Assembly (NCBI GenBank): GCA_963777505.1
Contig: CAVZQN010000004.1
Location: forward strand, 800,001-864,000
DNA length: 64,000 nucleotides
Source: an uncultured bacterium
GTDB taxonomy: Bacteria; Acidobacteriota; HRBIN11; JAKEFK01
Direction: 5' to 3'
Shown here: positions 1,534 through 40,815 of the stretch, piece by piece
Layout: every line of letters begins with the position of its first letter
Position numbering within the stretch: the first letter of the stretch is position 1
The notes under the pieces: generated by a model
The model's database searches: none
What the model was told of the DNA's origin: nothing
What the model saw: the letters and a program-made list of their open reading frames with translations, nothing else
Made by a program: the position numbers and the translations under genes

Positions 1534-3285
1534 CTACATTTTTAGTTTCACCTTAATCAGGCCGCGAATCGCATTGCTCACATAAACCTGATCTGCGTTT
1601 TGTACATCGTCCAGAGTCAAAGTTTTTTCGTGAGCATCCCAATTTCCTGATTCAAGCACATATCGCCTGTATGTTCCAGCAAGCAATCCTGATTGCACAG
1701 GTGGTGTATAAAACTTTCCGTTTCTTTCAACAAAAATATTTGAAATGGCTCCTTCAGTAATTTCATCGCGCTCATTCATAAATATGACATCGAAGTGTCC
1801 TTCACTTTTTGCATGCGCATGTTCTTTTTCGTAGAGCGTTCTTGCAGTTGTTTTGTGATATAAAAATCGATCGTTAGAATCCATTCGGTGTTGCGACAAA
1901 GTTACAGTGCATGGCTCATTCAATCGCATGATGTCTTCGGTTTCAATGTGCGCGTCTCCTGATTCATGCAAGATTAACCGCACTCGCGCGTGGCTATGCT
2001 GTGTTCCTATTCCATTCAGCGCGGCTTCGATTGCATCGCGATCAAATTTGAAAAGAAAATATTGTGCGGATCGTTCCAAACGTTCTAAATGAAACTTTAA
2101 GTGACGATATCCTTTTTCAGATTCCCACAAAATCGTTTCAAAGAGGCTGAATTGTGGTTTGGCTTCAGTGAGAAATTGTGCTTTCAACTTGCACTCTTCA
2201 TACTCACGAGTTGCATCGGCTTCGTATAAGATCCCGCTGCCAACTCCCATTTCGAGTTGTCCGGAGACACGATCCAAAGCTATTGTACGGATCGCAACAT
2301 TAAAGACACACTGAGTTGCTGACCACCAGCCGATTGTACCTGTGTAGATACCACGCGGTACTTGTTCGAGTTCATGGATAATTTGCATTGTTCTCAGTTT
2401 TGGCGCGCCCGTTACTGAACCAGATGGAAAAGTCGCCTCAAGGATCCTCGCTACATCTGTTTGTGAGTTGAGTGTTCCTCTCACAGTGGAGGTCATTTGC
2501 AGCAATGTTTCATATTGTTCGATCTCCATAGGCGCAGCAACATGAACGCTGCCGGATTCGCAAATTTTTCCCAGATCGTTACGCAGCAAATCAACAATCA
2601 TAAGATTTTCACTTTGTTCTTTAATGCTGTTGCGCAACGTAGAAGCATTTTCGGCATCTTCTTCAAGAGTTTTCCCGCGGGCTGATGTTCCTTTCATCGG
2701 ACGCATTTCGATTTGTGTTCCATCTTTTCGGAAAAATAGTTCAGGGGAAAAAGAAAGAGCCGCCCATTCCGGCGTTTCAATTAAAGCTGCATAGTTAACT
2801 CGTTGTTGTTGACGCAACCATGCATAGAGATCGCGCGGAGTTCCATCATAAGCTCCGGTATAACGCAGTGTGTAGTTGACTTGATACGTATCGCCCCGCG
2901 CTATGTGAGATTTAATCCTTTGAAGAGCGTCATTATAAGAACTTAGATTTTCATTTAAATGCAGATTGAGGATTTCAGGCTGGCTTTCATTGCCAAAAAA
3001 GCTATGTGGCAACTCGGTTTCAAAATTCTTCGACAATGCAAACCAGAGAAGCGGCAGGCTTGGTTTTCGGGGCTCAGGCAAATTCGGTAAGAATACATAC
3101 CCAGCTTCATAACTTAAGAAACCAAATGCAGTCCAACCTTGCCTGGTATGTTCCTCGATTTCTTTCAGCAGGTATTTGATCTCATCAGGATTATTTGACT
3201 GCACAATTTTCTCGGGTTCACGTACCAGAAAGGTTTGTCTTTCTTGTAAATTCGGACGAAGCGATTCGAGGAGCACAAGAGTCAT
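1534..3285 (-). CDS. pabB: Aminodeoxychorismate synthase component I fused to ADC-lyase/aminotransferase class IV domain (PabB-PabC)
   Basis: GDTYQVN, SPELFF, RPMKGT, ENLMIVDLLRND, PSGSVTGAPK; C-terminal HLERL, HKTT, TEGAISN, GLLAGTYR. Confidence 0.9.
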   Translation of the reverse strand: MTLVLLESLRPNLQERQTFLVREPEKIVQSNNPDEIKYLLKEIEEHTRQGWTAFGFLSYEAGYVFLPNLPEPRKPSLPLLWFALSKNFETELPHSFFGNESQPEILNLHLNENLSSYNDALQRIKSHIARGDTYQVNYTLRYTGAYDGTPRDLYAWLRQQQRVNYAALIETPEWAALSFSPELFFRKDGTQIEMRPMKGTSARGKTLEEDAENASTLRNSIKEQSENLMIVDLLRNDLGKICESGSVHVAAPMEIEQYETLLQMTSTVRGTLNSQTDVARILEATFPSGSVTGAPKLRTMQIIHELEQVPRGIYTGTIGWWSATQCVFNVAIRTIALDRVSGQLEMGVGSGILYEADATREYEECKLKAQFLTEAKPQFSLFETILWESEKGYRHLKFHLERLERSAQYFLFKFDRDAIEAALNGIGTQHSHARVRLILHESGDAHIETEDIMRLNEPCTVTLSQHRMDSNDRFLYHKTTARTLYEKEHAHAKSEGHFDVIFMNERDEITEGAISNIFVERNGKFYTPPVQSGLLAGTYRRYVLESGNWDAHEKTLTLDDVQNADQVYVSNAIRGLIKVKLKM

Positions 3286-3375
3286 AACAACATTTTAACG
3301 CGTAGTTCAATCAGAAACCTGACGAGATATGCGAAATTCTGAAGAAGTGATCGCAGTCAATCGAGGACAGAGACA

Positions 3376-3391
3376 TGGCAAGCCTCTTGCT
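3376..3391 (+). promoter_or_regulatory. sigma54 (-24/-12) promoter candidate
   Basis: TGGCAAGCCTCTTGCT has exact GG-N10-GC spacing, about 47 nt before the OMP start. Confidence 0.65.
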
Positions 3392-3437
3392 GAGGAACAT
3401 AGGCGTGGTTAAGAAGCTAATCACGGAGGGTTTTCGA

Positions 3438-4079
3438 ATGAAGAACATCTTAGTTCTTGCCTTTGTTTTGTTAGTGTCCTTAATTTCGGCTGTTTCTGTG
3501 CAAGCCGAAACAGAAATTTTGATTCATTCCGGATGGTCTTTCGCAAATGCTGAGATGGATTCTGTTCCGTGCATTTTTTGCCGTGATCCTATAATTGTTC
3601 CTCCTTTCACCTTCACAACCGAAGCCGGCAACAGTCCTGTATTCGGCTTCAAGGTTGCGTATTTTCTGAATAACCGGGCGGGCATCGAAGGGGGATTTTC
3701 TATCGCCCCGAATCATACCGTAACCACTTCAAATGTTTTTGAATGCCCGCCCGGTATGATATGTCCATTGGCGCTTTTTCCTTTCTTTCTAAGCGAACAC
3801 AACATGGTTACCTATCAATACGATGCAAATTTTGTCTACAACATACTCACCGGTGATGTGCAGCCGTATATCACAATCGGTGTGGGTGGAATTTCTTCCG
3901 ATCTTGAAACGGATGTGCGAAGTGATTTCGTTTTGAATTATGGTGGCGGCGCCAAATTTTGGTTTAACAAATTTGGATTACGCTTTGAATTAAATGATCA
4001 TGTCATTCCGAACTATTTCCTTACTGAGGAAACAGAACACAACATTCAAGTTCAGTACGGTTTTCTATTCAAGCTTTGA
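3438..4079 (+). CDS. Outer-membrane beta-barrel protein with Cys-containing loops
   Basis: Start re-placed at MKNILVLAF (GGAGGG RBS); signal peptide, PYITIGVGG, NYGGGAKF, C-terminal YGFLFKL. Confidence 0.75.
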   Translation: MKNILVLAFVLLVSLISAVSVQAETEILIHSGWSFANAEMDSVPCIFCRDPIIVPPFTFTTEAGNSPVFGFKVAYFLNNRAGIEGGFSIAPNHTVTTSNVFECPPGMICPLALFPFFLSEHNMVTYQYDANFVYNILTGDVQPYITIGVGGISSDLETDVRSDFVLNYGGGAKFWFNKFGLRFELNDHVIPNYFLTEETEHNIQVQYGFLFKL

Positions 4080-25315: not shown

Positions 25316-26503
25316 ATGGATGAGTTGCTGAGTTTACGATCAGAGTTTCCGATTTTAGAAACAACAACGTACATGATCAGCCATTCTCTTGGTGCTATGC
25401 CCCGGAAAGTTTACGATCGTTTACGTGAATTTGCTGATACATGGGCAACTCGCGGAATTCGTGCATGGGCCGAAGGTTGGTGGCAGATGCCGGTTACGAC
25501 CGGAAATAAGCTTGCCTCTTTGATTGGCGCTCAACCCGGCGAAGTCGTGATGCATCAAAATGTTTCTGTTGCAGTCTCAGTCGTTTTATCTGCATTGAAG
25601 TTTAACTCGCCAAGGAATCGTATTCTTTATCTTGATGTTGAATTCCCTACAGTGATTTATGTTCTGGAAGCGCACCGTCGCCATGGGGCGGAAGTCATTT
25701 CAATCAAATCTCCTGACGGTCTGGAAGTTCCATTAGAAGCCCTCATCGATGCAATTGATGAACGCACATTGATCGTGCCTTTGTCTTATGTTTTTTTCAA
25801 AACATCTACACGGATTGATATCGAAAGAGTTGTAAAAAAAGCGCATGAACATGGTGCATATGTTCTTTTAGATGCATATCAGGCGACCGGAGTTGTGCCG
25901 ATTGATGTAAAGAAATGGGATATTGATTTTCTCGTTGGCGGCTCTGTGAAGTGGCTTTGCGGCGGGCCAGGCGCTGGATATCTATATGTAAAGCCTTCGT
26001 TGTACTCATTGATTGAGCCCACCGTTACAGGATGGGTAGCACACGAACATCCATTTGCATTTGAAACAGGCGCAATAAAATATGCAAAAGATAGCATGCG
26101 TTTTTTGCATGGATCGCCACAAATTCCAGTTTTCTATGCAGCCGAACCAGGCTATGACTTGATCAATCAAGCAGGAGTGGATCGGATCAGAAAAAAATCG
26201 GTCGAGCAAACCACACGAATGATACAACTGTGTGATCAACGTGATTATAAGATTCAAACACCGAGGGATTCCGAAAAGCGGGGTGGAACGATTGTTGTCG
26301 ATGTTCCATATGGAGATGCTGTCGTAAAAGAATTGTCCGCTCGAAATATTCTTGTCGATTATCGCCCAGGCGCTGGGATCCGCATTTCACCGCATTTTTA
26401 TACACTGGATTCCGAAATCGATCAGACTTTTGAAGCGATCGATGAAATCATCAAATCAAAATCGTACGAGAAACATTTGAATCAACGAGGAAGCCAATAT
26501 TAA
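25316..26503 (+). CDS. kynU: Kynureninase
   Basis: SHSLGAMP, DAYQ, GGSVKWLCGGPG; adjacent to TDO. Confidence 0.85.
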   Translation: MDELLSLRSEFPILETTTYMISHSLGAMPRKVYDRLREFADTWATRGIRAWAEGWWQMPVTTGNKLASLIGAQPGEVVMHQNVSVAVSVVLSALKFNSPRNRILYLDVEFPTVIYVLEAHRRHGAEVISIKSPDGLEVPLEALIDAIDERTLIVPLSYVFFKTSTRIDIERVVKKAHEHGAYVLLDAYQATGVVPIDVKKWDIDFLVGGSVKWLCGGPGAGYLYVKPSLYSLIEPTVTGWVAHEHPFAFETGAIKYAKDSMRFLHGSPQIPVFYAAEPGYDLINQAGVDRIRKKSVEQTTRMIQLCDQRDYKIQTPRDSEKRGGTIVVDVPYGDAVVKELSARNILVDYRPGAGIRISPHFYTLDSEIDQTFEAIDEIIKSKSYEKHLNQRGSQY

Positions 26504-26508
26504 TGTTT

Positions 26509-26549
26509 GTAGTAAGGGACGCAGCCGAGCGAATGCGAGGCAGTGCCGT
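26509..26549. repeat. Partial copy of REP-like family B
   Basis: GTAGTAAGGGACGCAGCCGAGCGAATGCGAGGCAGTGCCGT matches 45730 and the reverse of 56428-56527. Confidence 0.7.
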
Positions 26550-26558
26550 TTATAAAAT

Positions 26559-27344
26559 ATGAAAGACGATTACGGAAAGTCACAACTCACGTACAACGAA
26601 TATCTCAAGGTTCCTGAACTGCTGAAACTACAGCGCTGCCTTAGCGATCCAGCTTCGCACGATGAATTGCAATTCATCATTACTCATCAAGCATATGAGC
26701 TGTGGTTCAAGCTCATGCTTTTCGAGATTGATACGATCAAAGAGCGCATGAACGGCGGCGATGTGCGTACTGCGGTGTGGTTGTTCCGGCGTGTCAATGC
26801 GATTGCGAAATTATTAATTCAGCAAATTCATATTTTGGAAAGCATGAGTCCGCTCGATTTTCTTGAATTCCGCGGAAAGCTAAACCCCGCGAGCGGCTTT
26901 CAATCCGTACAATTTCGAGAAATTGAGTTTGTTTCCAATCTGAAAAATGAAGCCCTCATGACGCATCTCAAAAGCGACCCTGAGACAATGGCAAAACTTC
27001 AGAAGCGTTTTAATGAACCAACGTTGTGGGATGCATTCCTGGAATTATTGAAGAAAAACGGTTTTGAAATTCCAGAGGATCGTAACAGTGAAGCGATTGC
27101 GAAAGAACTCGCCCGGCTGCATAAAGAATCTGAGAAACATTACGATCTGTTTGCGTTATCAGAAGAGATGATGACTTTTGATGAATCCATTGGACTCTGG
27201 CGCATGCATCATGTTCGGATGGTTGAGCGCATGATTGGAAATAAAATAGGCACTGGCGGAAGTGAAGGTGTACGGTACTTAACCACAACCATAACTAAAA
27301 AATGTTTCCCGGAACTCTGGGACGCTCGTACATACTTGGAGTGA
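26559..27344 (+). CDS. kynA: Tryptophan 2,3-dioxygenase
   Basis: HDELQFIITHQAYELWFK, SGFQSVQFR, RMIG.KIGTGGS. Confidence 0.96.
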   Translation: MKDDYGKSQLTYNEYLKVPELLKLQRCLSDPASHDELQFIITHQAYELWFKLMLFEIDTIKERMNGGDVRTAVWLFRRVNAIAKLLIQQIHILESMSPLDFLEFRGKLNPASGFQSVQFREIEFVSNLKNEALMTHLKSDPETMAKLQKRFNEPTLWDAFLELLKKNGFEIPEDRNSEAIAKELARLHKESEKHYDLFALSEEMMTFDESIGLWRMHHVRMVERMIGNKIGTGGSEGVRYLTTTITKKCFPELWDARTYLE

Positions 27345-27380
27345 CCCACAGGAGGGCGGGCGTCTCTGCCCGCCATAAAA

Positions 27381-28115
27381 ATGTCGTTATATTGGGAAGA
27401 ACACAGCTGGACTGATTTACAAGAGCGAAAGCCTCAAGTCGTACTCCTTCCGATCGGTTCAGTTGAAGCGCATGGCCCACATTTGCCGCTCGCGACAGAT
27501 ACAATTATTTCTGGTGAAATGGCGCGGCGCTCCGCGCTGGAATTACAGCAAAAAGGAATCTATTCATTAATCCTTCCCCCATTGCAGTATGCGGTCACCG
27601 ATTTCAGCCGTGATTTCCCCGGAACAATTACAATCCGGAAGGAAAATTTTCAAAACATACTAAAGGATATTTGTAATGCGCTTCGTGATACTGGAATTCC
27701 TGTATTGTGTGTTGTGAATTCTCATTTGGAGCCTGCACACATCAATGCAATCCATGATGCGATTCGTGAAATCAAAGGGATCCGGGTTGTGTTTCCTGAT
27801 AAAACTAAAAAACCGTGGGCTTCCTTGTTAACGCCAGAATTTAAGCAAGGAGCTTGTCACGCCGGATGTTATGAAACGTCTCTTGTACTTGCAGCACGCG
27901 AGGAGCTTGTTCGGAATGAACGTGCGAATTTGCCTCCGAATCCAGTTAATCTCGCAGTATTAATGAAGCAAGGTGTAAGTACATTCAATGAAGCAGGTGC
28001 CCCGCAAGCATATTTTGGTGATCCAGCCGCTGCATCGATTGAAGAAGGGGAGCAAACATACGAAATTCTCACTCGCATGATCGTCGAAAGCGTTCTGAAT
28101 TCACTTAACGATTAA
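27381..28115 (+). CDS. Creatininase-family amidohydrolase
   Basis: PIGSVEAHGPHLPLATD, NSH, HAGCYETS, GDP. Confidence 0.9.
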   Translation: MSLYWEEHSWTDLQERKPQVVLLPIGSVEAHGPHLPLATDTIISGEMARRSALELQQKGIYSLILPPLQYAVTDFSRDFPGTITIRKENFQNILKDICNALRDTGIPVLCVVNSHLEPAHINAIHDAIREIKGIRVVFPDKTKKPWASLLTPEFKQGACHAGCYETSLVLAAREELVRNERANLPPNPVNLAVLMKQGVSTFNEAGAPQAYFGDPAAASIEEGEQTYEILTRMIVESVLNSLND

Positions 28116-28135: not shown

Positions 28136-28762
28136 TTAATTAAAAACGTATTCGTAACCACTCGCTCCGAGAGGAAAATCTACAATCGAATAAGATAACC
28201 CACATTTTTGAAGTATCCCTGTTACAAAAGAATTGCTGTTCGGACCTTTCTTTGCTCTAAAGTCATATTGAAATTTTGAATTATTAAATTCCTTTGTAAG
28301 GCTTCGCAAACAATCAATTTTGAAACATGGAATATCGTTGTTCCTACTGCATTGAAGGCATCGTTCATCTTCTGCGAGCGAACCATTCAGTCTGACTTGC
28401 CATGAGGCGATCCTGCTGCGCTTTCTTGGATCCGGACCTGCAGTGAATTTGACTGCAATAAGTTCCTCATGCCGGTTATCGCTGGTAATTATGTAGCAAT
28501 GTATGGATGGTATAAGGGCTCCAGTCGGCCGGCAAAAAATATTCAAACTACATTGACCAGGATTACTGAACCATCCAACTGTTCTATTTTTAGGCGCAGA
28601 AATGAAAGTATTTTCAACTTTCATTAACGAAGTTTCGCCCATAAAACGTTCAATTGGACGCTCAAGTATTAAATTGTCTGAACCTGAAACCGCCTGGTCT
28701 TTCGGCGGGATGTATGCGAAAAGGACTAAAATTATTAGAAAGACAACGTAAAGGCCCCTCAC
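28136..28762 (-). CDS. Exported DUF3750-like protein (permuted papain-like fold, Ser in place of Cys)
   Basis: GTG start at 28762 with GAGGGAG RBS; N-terminal hydrophobic helix; HCYI ... GPNSNSFV ... GASG. Confidence 0.5.
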   Translation of the reverse strand: MRGLYVVFLIILVLFAYIPPKDQAVSGSDNLILERPIERFMGETSLMKVENTFISAPKNRTVGWFSNPGQCSLNIFCRPTGALIPSIHCYIITSDNRHEELIAVKFTAGPDPRKRSRIASWQVRLNGSLAEDERCLQCSRNNDIPCFKIDCLRSLTKEFNNSKFQYDFRAKKGPNSNSFVTGILQKCGLSYSIVDFPLGASGYEYVFN

Positions 28763-28960
28763 ATCTACGGCTCCCTCATCGCAATTATACAATTTGTACC
28801 AATTCGAGAAAACTGGAATGAAATGAGACATCCAGTACCTCAAAAAATCAACATCTGTACAGAAAATAACACACATTTGGTTAGCATTTTGTAGGACCCT
28901 TTTGAGGTTTCTGTTGTCTAAGTATAGATAGAAGTAAGATTTACAAGATTATTGCAATAC

Positions 28961-28976
28961 TGGCATCGTCTTTGCT
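28961..28976 (+). promoter_or_regulatory. sigma54 (-24/-12) promoter candidate
   Basis: cTGGCATCGTCTTTGCT, exact GG-N10-GC, 34 nt before ATG 29010. Confidence 0.75.
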
Positions 28977-29009
28977 TAGCTAATAAGCGATTGGAAGTTA
29001 GGAGGCGAA

Positions 29010-29180
29010 ATGAGAAAACGGAAGAAATTGTCTCTAGGTGATTTAATTGCAGCTCTTTTTGAGGAATCTAAGAAAGTGACGACCGATCGACTCGAGCAGA
29101 ACTTGCTTGTTTATGCAGCTTTACGGGATTTATTGCGTACAAAAGTTATTAGCGTACGGCCGATAGCGATCCGGGCATAA
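29010..29180 (+). CDS. Small basic protein (56 aa), paralog 1
   Basis: Not in ORF track; AGGAGG RBS; MRKRKKLSLGDLIAALFEESKKVTTDRLEQNLLVYAALRDLLRTKVISVRPIAIRA; core 25/32 identical to paralog 2 by hand alignment. Confidence 0.88.
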   Translation: MRKRKKLSLGDLIAALFEESKKVTTDRLEQNLLVYAALRDLLRTKVISVRPIAIRA

Positions 29181-29183
29181 TTT

Positions 29184-29274
29184 AGGAATTTTATTCCTTA
29201 TGGTTTATCCCCTCCTGGATAAGAACATGGACGTGGCCGTTCGATCTTGACTGAGGTCGGACGGCCTTTCTTTT
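29184..29274 (+). ncRNA. Candidate 3'-UTR structured RNA/sRNA, copy 1, ending in an intrinsic terminator
   Basis: AGGAAT/ATTCCT hairpin; TTATCC-CCTCCT-GGATAA hairpin; GGCCGTTCG...CGGACGGCC-TTTCTTTT. Confidence 0.55.
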
Positions 29275-29308
29275 AGCAACATTTATACAGTGATACCGAT
29301 AATTTGAA

Positions 29309-29336
29309 TGATCCGAAATGAATTCTGGATCGTACT
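29309..29336 (+). promoter_or_regulatory. ECF sigma promoter candidate (RpoE/ChrR-type motif)
   Basis: TGATCC-N16-CGTACT just upstream of paralog 2. Confidence 0.55.
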
Positions 29337-29361
29337 TAATAAGAAGAATATGGAGAATGCA

Positions 29362-29547
29362 ATGAGAAGCAAAAAACATTCGGTTCGAGTAACAGTTGGT
29401 GAGTTGATTGAAGCATTATTTGATGAAACAAAGAAGGTGACACGGAACCGGATGGAACAAAATCTTCTGGTATATGCAGCCCTCCGTGATCTTGTAAAAG
29501 GACGCAGATTACGTCCTGTTCCAGTTCGTTCAAAATACACGCATTAA
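29362..29547 (+). CDS. Small basic protein (61 aa), paralog 2
   Basis: GGAG RBS; MRSKKHSVRVTVGELIEALFDETKKVTRNRMEQNLLVYAALRDLVKGRRLRPVPVRSKYTH. Confidence 0.88.
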   Translation: MRSKKHSVRVTVGELIEALFDETKKVTRNRMEQNLLVYAALRDLVKGRRLRPVPVRSKYTH

Positions 29548-29552
29548 TTCTG

Positions 29553-29639
29553 AGGCGGAGTGATGCCCGCCTATCCATTCCTGGATAGAATGTTACAATT
29601 CTGAGCCGTTCGCAGATTGCGGACGGCTTTTCTTTTTTT
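29553..29639 (+). ncRNA. Candidate 3'-UTR structured RNA/sRNA, copy 2, ending in an intrinsic terminator
   Basis: AGGCGG/CCGCCT hairpin; CTATCC-ATTCCT-GGATAG hairpin; AGCCGTTCGC...GCGGACGGCT-TTTCTTTTTT. Confidence 0.55.
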
Positions 29640-29667
29640 ACCTCACAGTTTAATATTCAGATCTATC

Positions 29668-31572
29668 ATGAAACCGTTTTACATCACTACGCCCATTTAC
29701 TATGTAAATGGACTGCCTCACATTGGACATATGTTTACGACAATCCTGTCCGATGTGATCGCGCGTTATCATCGATTGCTTGGGGATGATGTTTATTTCT
29801 TAACCGGAACCGATGAGCATGGTGTGAAAGCCGAAAAAGCTGCGCTTGAGCTTGGAATTCCCCCGCGCGAAATGGCAGATCGCATCGCTCTCCCATTTAA
29901 GGATCTTTGGAAGCGGCTCAATATCGACTTCTCTGATTTCATTCGCACAACAGAACCACGCCACTATGAATCGGTAGCCGAACTTTGGAAACGATGCAAA
30001 CAGAATGGCGATATTTATTTAGGTGAATATGAAGGTTGGTATTGCACGTTCGAGGAAGCATTCTGGACAGAAGGTCAACTGGTTGAAGGAAAATGCCCGG
30101 ATTGCGGACGTCCTGCGGAACGAATCAAAGAAGAAAGTTATTTTTTCCGTCTTTCAAAATATCAAGAGCCGCTTTTAAAACACTACCGAGAGCACCCCGA
30201 TTTCATTTTTCCGCGTAAGCGTTTCAATGAAGTTATTAGTTTTGTAGAAAGCGGTTTGCGCGATCTGAGTGTCAGCAGAGTCCGGTTGAAATGGGGAATA
30301 CCAGTTCCTGATGATCCACGTCATGTGATTTATGTCTGGTTTGATGCTTTAACAAACTACATTACAGGCGTTGGATTTCCATCGAATCAGGAAATGTTCA
30401 AACGCTACTGGCCTGCCAAGTTACACATGATTGGCAAAGATATTGTGCGTTTTCATGCTGTATATTGGCCCGCGTTTTTGCTTTCAGGTGGAGTCGAGTT
30501 GCCGAAACAGCTTTTGGTTCATGGCTGGTGGATGAAGGATGATACGAAAATCTCAAAGTCGCGCGGAAATGTAGTCGATCCAGAAACGCTGATCAACACA
30601 TTTGGTGTTGATGGCTCGCGATATTTTTTAACGCGTGAAGCTCCTATTGAATCGGATAGCACTTATGATTTCGATAGTATCTTGAAGCGTGTTAATAGTG
30701 ATCTTGCAAATGATCTTGGGAATCTTGTGAGCCGCTCGCTGACAATGGTTCATCGTTACAATGCAGGTGTAATTCCTGAGGCACAACCTGGCTCAGCTCC
30801 ATTTCAGGCTTCACTTGAAAAAATCATCACTCATTTGGAAACCTCAATTAAAGATTTTGCATTTCCTCGTCTACTTTCAGAAATCTGGGGCGTTGTGAAT
30901 GCGATGAATCGATACATTGTTGATGAACAGCCCTGGACACTTGCGAAGGATCCCACAAAAACTCAAAGCCTGAATAATGTTTTGTATAACACAAGTGAAG
31001 GACTCAGATTGATTGGAGGAATGATTGCTCCGGTCATACCCGCATCAGCCGATGCTTTGTGGAAACAACTGGGTCTAAAAAAAGCAGCATCACACGCAGT
31101 GATGGACGATTTGCGGTGGGGACAGTTGCAGCCAGGTACAAAACTTGAGGAAGTGTCGCCATTGTTCCCAAGAATCGAAATCAAAGGAGAGGAAACGGTG
31201 GAAGATCAACAGCCAAAAACAGAAGAGAAACCAGTAGAACCGGTGCAAGAAAGAATTTCGATTGAAGACTTTTTGAAAACAGGATTGCGTGTTGCGGAAG
31301 TAAAAGCAGCCGAGAAAGTTCAAGGTTCAAAAAAGCTGCTGAAGATCACCGTTGATCTTGGTACTGAAGTGCGAACAGTTGTTGCAGGAATTGCTGATGC
31401 ATATGCACCTGAAGATCTGGTTGGCAAACAAGTCGTGGTTGTAACGAATTTGAAGCCTGCCAAATTAATGGGAATCGAGTCGAATGGAATGATTTTGGCT
31501 GCAACGCTGGATGGCAAACCCGTTTTAGTCTCGATTTCAGCTCCTGTTCCGAATGGAACGACGGTAAGATAG
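29668..31572 (+). CDS. metG: Methionine--tRNA ligase with C-terminal tRNA-binding domain
   Basis: ITTPIYYVN..PHIGH, YVWFDAL, KISKS, OB-fold tail; start re-placed at MKPFY. Confidence 0.97.
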   Translation: MKPFYITTPIYYVNGLPHIGHMFTTILSDVIARYHRLLGDDVYFLTGTDEHGVKAEKAALELGIPPREMADRIALPFKDLWKRLNIDFSDFIRTTEPRHYESVAELWKRCKQNGDIYLGEYEGWYCTFEEAFWTEGQLVEGKCPDCGRPAERIKEESYFFRLSKYQEPLLKHYREHPDFIFPRKRFNEVISFVESGLRDLSVSRVRLKWGIPVPDDPRHVIYVWFDALTNYITGVGFPSNQEMFKRYWPAKLHMIGKDIVRFHAVYWPAFLLSGGVELPKQLLVHGWWMKDDTKISKSRGNVVDPETLINTFGVDGSRYFLTREAPIESDSTYDFDSILKRVNSDLANDLGNLVSRSLTMVHRYNAGVIPEAQPGSAPFQASLEKIITHLETSIKDFAFPRLLSEIWGVVNAMNRYIVDEQPWTLAKDPTKTQSLNNVLYNTSEGLRLIGGMIAPVIPASADALWKQLGLKKAASHAVMDDLRWGQLQPGTKLEEVSPLFPRIEIKGEETVEDQQPKTEEKPVEPVQERISIEDFLKTGLRVAEVKAAEKVQGSKKLLKITVDLGTEVRTVVAGIADAYAPEDLVGKQVVVVTNLKPAKLMGIESNGMILAATLDGKPVLVSISAPVPNGTTVR

Positions 31573-40527: not shown

Positions 40528-40815
40528 CTAACGCGGAACTTTGCCCAGTACGTTGATCTCTTCTTCGTAATATCTACGATATAGAATTTGCCATTCCTGT
40601 CCTCCTTCGGGAATTTTCCGCTTAAAGGAGGCAATTCGATCACGTACTTTTTGATCCAGCATCTCGTCAATTTTCAATCGATTGTTTAACACTTTTACGA
40701 TTTCAAGCCGAATTTCATTTAAATCTGTTTTTAAAATTACTTCAGGATCCACACGTAATGCTTCTGCGACTTGATGAGAGATGCGGGTTACTTTTTCACG
40801 ACTTAGTCTCAACAT
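40528..40815 (-). CDS. DUF507 family protein
   Basis: RLSREKV..., IPEGGQEW.ILY..YYEEE. Confidence 0.8.
   Translation of the reverse strand: MLRLSREKVTRISHQVAEALRVDPEVILKTDLNEIRLEIVKVLNNRLKIDEMLDQKVRDRIASFKRKIPEGGQEWQILYRRYYEEEINVLGKVPR

Follow-up and report, generated by a model that had tools for sequence, protein, structure and literature searches.

A conserved, structured 3'UTR tail with a putative anti-Shine-Dalgarno loop behind a duplicated small-protein gene of an uncultured acidobacterium

RsaE/RoxS and RNAIII of the Firmicutes are encoded by independent small RNA (sRNA) genes and carry several unpaired C-rich motifs that target G-rich Shine-Dalgarno (SD) regions, and enterobacterial sRNAs derived from 3' untranslated regions (3'UTRs), NarS for example, have their terminator in common with a protein-coding gene and depend on Hfq and RNase E. 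To our knowledge, regulatory RNAs have hardly been studied at all in uncultured soil and sediment lineages. In Rhodobacter, RNase E releases four sRNAs with CCUCCUCCC anti-SD loops (CcsR1-4) from the transcript of ccaF1, in the 3'UTR of which they lie; ccaF1 encodes a DUF1127 protein of 71 amino acids (aa), and the CcaF1 protein binds its own ccaF1-CcsR transcript (PMC8034643). The wider cuckoo family (CcsR, RcsR1, alpha-r14, NfeR1) is described (PMC4615179) as consisting of two to four adjacent hairpins of 24-50 nt with stems of at least 6 bp, the loops of which (9-27 nt) carry CCUCCUCCC; by the same description it is confined to the Alphaproteobacteria and its CIN1 subgroup adjoins a DUF1127 gene. 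Precedents in cis are the icaR mRNA of Staphylococcus aureus, in which a UCCCCUG motif in the 3'UTR pairs with the SD of the same mRNA and is proposed to block initiation (PMC3868564), and, of a different kind, the hbs 5'/3'UTR interaction (PMC5737220). Here, we analyse a stretch of 64,000 nt from an uncultured bacterium (the window; contig CAVZQN010000004.1, positions 800,001 to 864,000), in which two adjacent copies of a small-protein gene are each followed by a structured and strongly conserved 3'UTR tail, the first of which exposes a CCUCCU loop that may pair with SD sequences.

The segment at 29184-29639, described preliminarily as a covarying hairpin with an anti-SD loop, comprises several elements: the 3'UTR of a first small gene (unit 1), a spacer, the 61-aa open reading frame (ORF) of a second (unit 2), and the 3'UTR of the latter. 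Every sequence string quoted in the preliminary description occurs once, and where it had been placed. Unit 1 (29010-29180, on the + strand like all features of both units) encodes a basic protein of 56 aa without known family, predicted to form a helical hairpin, and the SD sequence AGGAGG (29000-29005) lies 4 nt before its ATG. Unit 2 (29362-29547) encodes a paralogue of 61 aa and is preceded by a weaker SD, GGAG (29352-29355). The two proteins share 31/59 aligned residues (53% identity, E 1e-20). A scan of species-representative genomes recovered four loci with family members (L001-L004) from three uncultured genomes, and the tails were present only in L001, a syntenic locus of another uncultured genome that served as the comparison partner of the window. 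In L001 the gene order is dioxygenase, creatininase, unit 1, unit 2 and metG, the flanking enzymes show 77% and 81% protein identity with their counterparts in the window, AGGAGG also precedes the ATG of unit 1, and the counterpart of the unit-2 SD is GGAGG. This locus belongs to a long-read metagenome-assembled genome, the single-base indels of which are not to be trusted.

The comparison with L001 gives the main result. The 3'UTRs of units 1 and 2 are 90.6% (77/85) and 86.6% (71/82) identical between the two genomes, as against 66.7% (114/171) and 71.0% (132/186) for the respective coding sequences (CDS) and only 41% (23/56) and 51% (31/61) for their third codon positions. Three flanking CDS, 3.4 kb in all, show 69-73% identity and longest identical runs of 20, 17 and 26 nt; in the tails, the longest identical run reaches 42 nt (29192-29233) and spans the whole CCUCCU hairpin plus the linker. 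Because the 3'UTRs are far better kept than the CDS, the third positions and the flanking genes, the tails must be functional RNA; they are under strong purifying selection, stronger at the nucleotide level than that acting on the genes they follow. A 16-codon ORF with its ATG at 29200 (29200-29250) crosses the CCUCCU hairpin into the terminator, and L001 has the same first 12 codons. That the tail encodes this 16-aa peptide was considered and rejected: the C-terminus shifts frame in L001 and not one synonymous change is found over the 42 nt, which argues that the constraint bears on the RNA and not on a peptide.

Both tails, about 90-95 nt long, fold far better than shuffled sequences (z of -4.3 for unit 1 and -5.1 for unit 2; 0/200 shuffles as good). 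That of unit 1 is made of two hairpins and a terminator. Hairpin 1, AGGAAU-UUU-AUUCCU (29184-29198), has its stem GGAAU/AUUCC kept in L001, with the loop CAU instead of UUU. Next comes the predicted anti-SD hairpin (29199-29229), in which an outer stem of 4 bp (29199-29202/29226-29229) and an inner stem of 7 bp (29204-29210/29217-29223) carry the loop CCUCCU (29211-29216), the core TTATCC-CCTCCT-GGATAA lying at 29205-29222. This hairpin is 100% identical in L001, and its loop is predicted to be unpaired with a probability of 0.97-0.99 in both genomes. The tail ends with an intrinsic terminator (29235-29275), found by folding and by a terminator scan, that consists of a 14-bp stem (29235-29266; arms GGCCGTTCG at 29235-29243 and CGGACGGCC at 29258-29266) and a U-tract; in L001, one stem pair has changed from A-U to U-A, the loop differs and the T-run is interrupted.

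The unit-2 tail is made of three small hairpins and a terminator. Hairpin 1, GGCGG-AGUGAUGC-CCGCC (29554-29571), has its outer pair changed on both sides in L001 (G-C to A-U) and its loop identical. The predicted paralogue of the anti-SD hairpin follows, CUAUCC-AUUCCU-GGAUAG (29571-29588), and reads AGUCC-AUUUCU-GGAUU in L001, with one U-A pair changed to A-U, one A-U pair to G-U and one loop C to U; the loop is predicted to close into a tetraloop (probability of being unpaired 0.24). Hairpin 3, AGAAU-GUUACA-AUUCU (29587-29602), has an identical stem in L001 and the loop GUCACA. The terminator (29603-29639, again from the fold and the terminator scan) lies directly upstream of metG and has a 12-bp stem (arms AGCCGTTCG at 29604-29612 and CGGACGGCT at 29620-29628) followed by a U-tract; its changes in L001, U-G to C-G and G-C to G-U, are one-sided. 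The terminators of both units, those of L001 included, have the G+C-rich stem and U-tract of intrinsic terminators. No internal promoter conserved in the tails was seen by eye in their alignment (A3).

The differences between the two genomes thus fit the predicted folds: the loops of hairpin 1 of unit 1, of hairpin 3 of unit 2 and of both terminators vary on stems that are kept, and compensatory changes affect one element of unit 1, its terminator, and two of unit 2, hairpin 1 and the paralogous hairpin. This conservation, with varying loops on kept stems, bears out the initial proposal that a functional, structured RNA is attached to each of the duplicated units. The further proposal that the two loops are slightly different seeds is not supported, since the unit-2 loop, AUUCCU in the window, is AUUUCU in L001 and is predicted to be a tetraloop, on a stem kept by compensatory changes. 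Because the loop changes and the stem is compensated, selection on the unit-2 hairpin must concern a property other than an anti-SD loop; the scaffold is selected in both units and the anti-SD loop only in unit 1.

The covariation first reported for the hairpin is real as far as the changes go (in an ungapped alignment of the four hairpin sequences, two pairs have changed on both sides, U-A to C-G and U-A to A-U, and one pair on one side only), but it is thin, with only three distinct sequences and a count that is matched by 103/500 shuffles. It fits a structure and statistically proves nothing. Likewise, the change of a terminator pair from G-C to A-T exists, but shows only that the terminator was duplicated along with the rest of the unit. 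A covariance model built from the four tails matched only those four in 88,588 bases (next best E 0.79), and the minus-strand ORF overlapping the unit-1 tail, spurious gene calls of which would have been a sign of more copies, had no match in the protein set. The Rfam search initially recommended placed the tails in no family: a permissive search of 28700-29800 gave six matches, all far below their gathering thresholds, and the whole window gave none at gathering. A palindromic DNA operator (TTATCC-N6-GGATAA) was considered and found unlikely given the position of the site between stop codon and terminator, its asymmetric conservation and the compensatory changes in the stem. Two further CCUCCU hairpins of the window were dismissed: that near 40601 (+ strand) is a chance match inside a minus-strand CDS, and that at 27355 (- strand) merely complements the AGGAGG (27350-27355) ahead of the creatininase gene.

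The reading that we favour, with a probability of roughly 40%, is that the unit-1 tail acts as a regulatory RNA, within the 3'UTR or derived from it, that pairs with SD sequences. The analysis shows the structures, the duplication of whole units, the strong purifying selection on the tails and the accessibility of the loop. Each small gene would be transcribed together with its tail of short hairpins and terminator, the tail itself being a functional RNA. The unit-1 tail would expose CCUCCU in a hexaloop that is always open, at the end of an interrupted stem of 11 bp, and this loop would pair with strong SDs (AGGAGG) and block 30S binding, hence translation. The loop could do so while attached to the mRNA, in which case the nearest target would be its own AGGAGG, or an endonuclease could cut near the stop codon and free the tail as a 3'UTR-derived sRNA; other mRNAs led by AGGAGG would then be possible targets. 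The unit-2 tail may be viewed as a diverged duplicate in which the hairpin scaffold was kept and the anti-SD loop was not. SD-targeting remains the leading idea for unit 1 because the tail is structured and functional and the loop is predicted to be open and is identical in L001. The duplex of 6 bp that the loop would form with AGGAGG has an energy of -8.6 kcal/mol, and the full AGGAGG before unit 1 in both genomes counts in favour of the idea. The complementarity of CCUCCU to the ribosome-binding site of its own gene, pointed out from the start, is true of the window and of L001, but it is generic: AGGAGG occurs nine times on the + strand of the window.

A number of observations weigh against SD pairing. 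Hairpins with CCTCC in the loop are no more frequent in the window than by chance (4 versus a mean of 4.5 in 200 shuffles), and in the DNA searched the element is found in only two genomes, those of the window and of L001. The unit-1 hairpin is invariant and so offers no covariation, and its stems and the linker are as conserved as its loop. The loop is CCUCCU, of 6 nt, and not a cuckoo loop of 9-27 nt with CCUCCUCCC as these are described, and a loop of six bases can hardly pair all of them without opening the stem. The unit-2 hairpin is kept by compensatory change though its loop in L001 is not anti-SD. Further results count against a specific action in cis, suggested earlier as a fold-back onto the start of the same mRNA: the duplex of the 42-nt block with its own start region (-15.7 kcal/mol) is no better than the average over 80 start regions of the window (-15.6, standard deviation 4.5), and opening the own SD region costs about 5.3-5.5 kcal/mol, leaving a net gain of only about -3 kcal/mol. 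No long-range inverted repeat between the UTRs was found that is common to both genomes, and the minimum free energy (MFE) folds of the full mRNAs show no 5'-3' fold-back and keep the 3' hairpins local, with the proviso that nested folding cannot model the pairing of a hairpin loop with a distant site.

Two of these observations would be better explained by the main alternative, a rather doubtful one, namely that the hairpin is a binding or processing site for a protein (the encoded basic protein, an RNase or a chaperone) and so would govern how stable the mRNA is or how it is processed; that the unit-1 loop reads as an anti-SD would then be incidental. Such a site accounts for the survival of the unit-2 hairpin without an anti-SD loop and for stems and a linker conserved like the loop; UCC-NNUNCU-GGAU is common to all four copies whatever their anti-SD content, each paralogous gene has its own diverged copy of the hairpin, and the 42-nt perfect block suggests sequence-specific recognition across stems and linker. 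The proteins are also very basic (isoelectric point, pI, 10.6-11), and in the closest analogue CcaF1 binds the ccaF1-CcsR transcript (PMC8034643). Yet the proteins have no family or fold match, a likeness to pentatricopeptide-repeat (PPR) proteins is only the sum of individually insignificant repeats, and downstream of the members at L003 and L004 this hairpin is absent. A passive role, in which the tails would be stabilisers and terminators that shield the 3' ends of short, highly expressed mRNAs from exonucleases, agrees with the common arrangement of hairpins directly before strong terminators; it predicts sequence drift with compensated stems, however, and not a 42-nt perfect block at near-saturated synonymous sites, and we regard it as improbable.

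We are slightly more sceptical of regulated attenuators or leaders, the unit-1 tail serving unit 2 and the unit-2 tail serving metG. L001 keeps the order unit 1, unit 2, metG and L002 has one copy before metG, the U-tract of the unit-1 terminator is broken in L001, and metG has no SD of its own; but neither the mRNA folds nor the inverted-repeat search disclosed an alternative antiterminator pairing, no T-box or other Rfam leader was found, and a TAATAT box between the terminator and metG is kept in the window, L001 and L002; L002 lacks a unit-2-type tail. Very improbable, finally, is a unit akin to type I toxin-antitoxin systems, as suggested in the preliminary description, in which the 3' end of the mRNA would fold back to silence a toxic peptide. 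The small size of the ORF, its strong SD and the anti-SD motif of the 3'UTR do speak for such a unit. Nevertheless, the proteins are basic, hydrophilic, predicted to be soluble helical hairpins and devoid of a membrane segment; the family is conserved (48 cluster representatives) and also sits in ordinary operons without tails (L003, L004); the MFE folds lack the fold-back and PADLOC gives no match; and antisense promoter-like sites occur in only three of the four units, at one codon stretch, and not in unit 1 of the window. The protein properties and the occurrence in operons thus argue strongly against a usual type I toxin. SD pairing and protein binding could also be combined in a self-contained protein-RNA module independent of the alphaproteobacterial CcaF1-CcsR system and possibly proper to Acidobacteriota, which as a whole we consider unlikely: the proteins of about 60 aa would bind the hairpin in their own 3'UTR and govern its release, the freed tail would mimic the anti-SD of 16S rRNA and titrate strong SDs, and in each of the two tandem units protein and hairpin would be cognate, the pairs having diverged from each other.

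What is known of the small proteins comes from homologues and models. The family is small: word-indexed searches yielded 15 homologues for unit 1 and 7 for unit 2, and a profile search of 1.84 billion representatives yielded 48 cluster representatives at E <= 1e-3. Family members are about 55-63 aa long and their alignment (A2, 21 sequences) has 21 invariant columns; homologues of 89-371 aa look like ORFs extended upstream and were rejected as fusions. The AlphaFold model of the unit-1 protein is a helical hairpin (helices 9-23 and 27-43; predicted local distance difference test score 77) with basic disordered ends. Units 1 and 2 have pI values of 10.6 and 11.0 and best 19-aa Kyte-Doolittle windows of 0.89 and 0.34, without hydrophobic segment, and both proteins are predicted to be soluble amphipathic helical hairpins. 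Neither protein scored above a curated Pfam cut-off, NCBIfam, PHROGs and PADLOC gave no match, and the 15 matches of the AlphaFold model in the PDB include none with an E below 3. The A2 profile matched a single PDB sequence, the designer PPR protein 5iww_D, with a summed E of 7.6e-6 to which each repeat contributes insignificantly (i-E above 200). The segment LFEEAKKV..E.N..VYAAL.D looks like helix B of a PPR motif connected to helix A of the following one. The PPR likeness is only a lead towards a possible RNA-binding function.

In three cases, homologues of the unit-1 and unit-2 types have a longest contig of the same length (1,900,386, 142,724 and 3,406 bases), from which the tandem pair would seem to recur in further relatives; the nearest Atlas cluster is labelled Acidobacteriota, on two members. 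At L003 and L004, the next gene begins within 20-30 nt of the family member, and there is no such tail. L002 has a single copy before metG, with unrelated hairpins downstream and the unit-2-type tail absent altogether. There, the usual stop codon of the family member is lost (3260-3470), which makes the ORF about 35 codons longer, and downstream of the gene come a long inverted repeat, almost perfect, and two further G+C-rich hairpins that are unrelated to the tails of the window.

The genomic setting of the two units is ordinary chromosomal. Upstream lie kynureninase, tryptophan 2,3-dioxygenase and a creatininase-family enzyme, then a minus-strand ORF, and downstream lies metG. The first three genes, for a kynureninase-like aminotransferase, the dioxygenase and a creatininase-family hydrolase, form a kynurenine-pathway cluster (25316-28115) in which the hydrolase may serve as formamidase. 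The minus-strand ORF (28136-28876, 246 aa), between the creatininase gene and unit 1, has no family in Pfam, PHROGs or PADLOC, its sole match being a weak one to DUF3750 (E 0.033). It is missing in L001, where about 180 nt separate the creatininase gene from unit 1, and it is probably an insertion in the lineage of the window. Upstream of unit 1, two blocks are common to the window (28915-28932 and 28960-28981) and L001 (2888-2905 and 2931-2952), TGTCTAAGTAT(A/T)GATAG and, in the presumed 5'UTR, CTGGCAT.G..TTTGCTTA, which probably serve unit 1 as promoter and leader elements; two similar blocks, AGCAACATTT and ACCGATAA, lie ahead of unit 2. On the other side, a TAATAT box (29651-29656, within the region 29640-29670) lies 11 nt before the metG ATG, and 10 nt before it in L002 (3480-3510); its position, with the lack of an SD, suggests that the metG mRNA has a very short leader or is leaderless. 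In the corresponding region of L001 (3640-3715), box and metG ATG are separated by an inserted inverted repeat some 45 nt long. The metG frame of L001 also slips by a single base in a C run (3712-3930), which is most likely a homopolymer assembly error and is read as such because metG is essential.

The tails thus constitute a candidate 3'UTR regulatory RNA without Rfam family, tied to a small-protein family without Pfam or NCBIfam model. If the anti-SD reading is true, the combination of a small-protein gene with an anti-SD RNA tail arose more than once, and would be a general design rather than a peculiarity of the Alphaproteobacteria. The units, about 270 nt each, also provide a compact test system for the competition between a 3'UTR loop and the ribosome at a consensus SD. 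In the literature on sRNAs with CCUCCU loops we found no title on a system outside the known model organisms, in searches not aimed at this element or family, and a similarly general search on small RNA, Shine-Dalgarno and UTR-derived RNA in Acidobacteria, likewise not aimed at this element, listed no paper naming Acidobacteria.

Among known systems, RsaE/RoxS and RNAIII resemble the unit-1 tail in their unpaired C-rich motif; they differ in that the present motif lies in the 3'UTR of a gene, and it has no Rfam match. As with sRNAs of the NarS type, the RNA would share the terminator of a protein-coding gene. The icaR mRNA likewise has a C-rich anti-SD motif in its 3'UTR that can pair with its own SD (here CCUCCU at 29211-29216 and AGGAGG at 29000-29005); there, however, a long 3'UTR forms an extended duplex that is a substrate of RNase III, whereas here 6 nt sit in a tight hairpin loop, and pairing with the own start region is no stronger than with an average one. 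With the cuckoo RNAs, as they have been described, the unit-1 hairpin shares its dimensions, its length of 31 nt with the outer stem and its stem of 7+4 bp falling within the limits of that family. It differs from them in that unit 1 has one CCUCCU hairpin and not two to four, that the unit-2 loop (AUUCCU/AUUUCU) is not anti-SD, and that the host of the window belongs to the Acidobacteriota by its GTDB lineage whereas the cuckoo family is reported from Alphaproteobacteria only. The Rfam model of RcsR1 (RF02552) scores 17.7 bits against a gathering threshold of 60 (E 0.91), in unit 2 only and mostly through the terminator, and neither small protein matches DUF1127 in Pfam at E values up to 1. 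In motif, loop size, hairpin number, Rfam score and lack of an adjacent DUF1127 gene, then, the present element departs from the cuckoo family; it is an analogue and not a member, and ccaF1-CcsR is its closest analogue: both associate a gene for a protein of about 50-70 aa with a 3'UTR hairpin that bears an anti-SD C/U-rich loop, a tandem duplication and a terminator.

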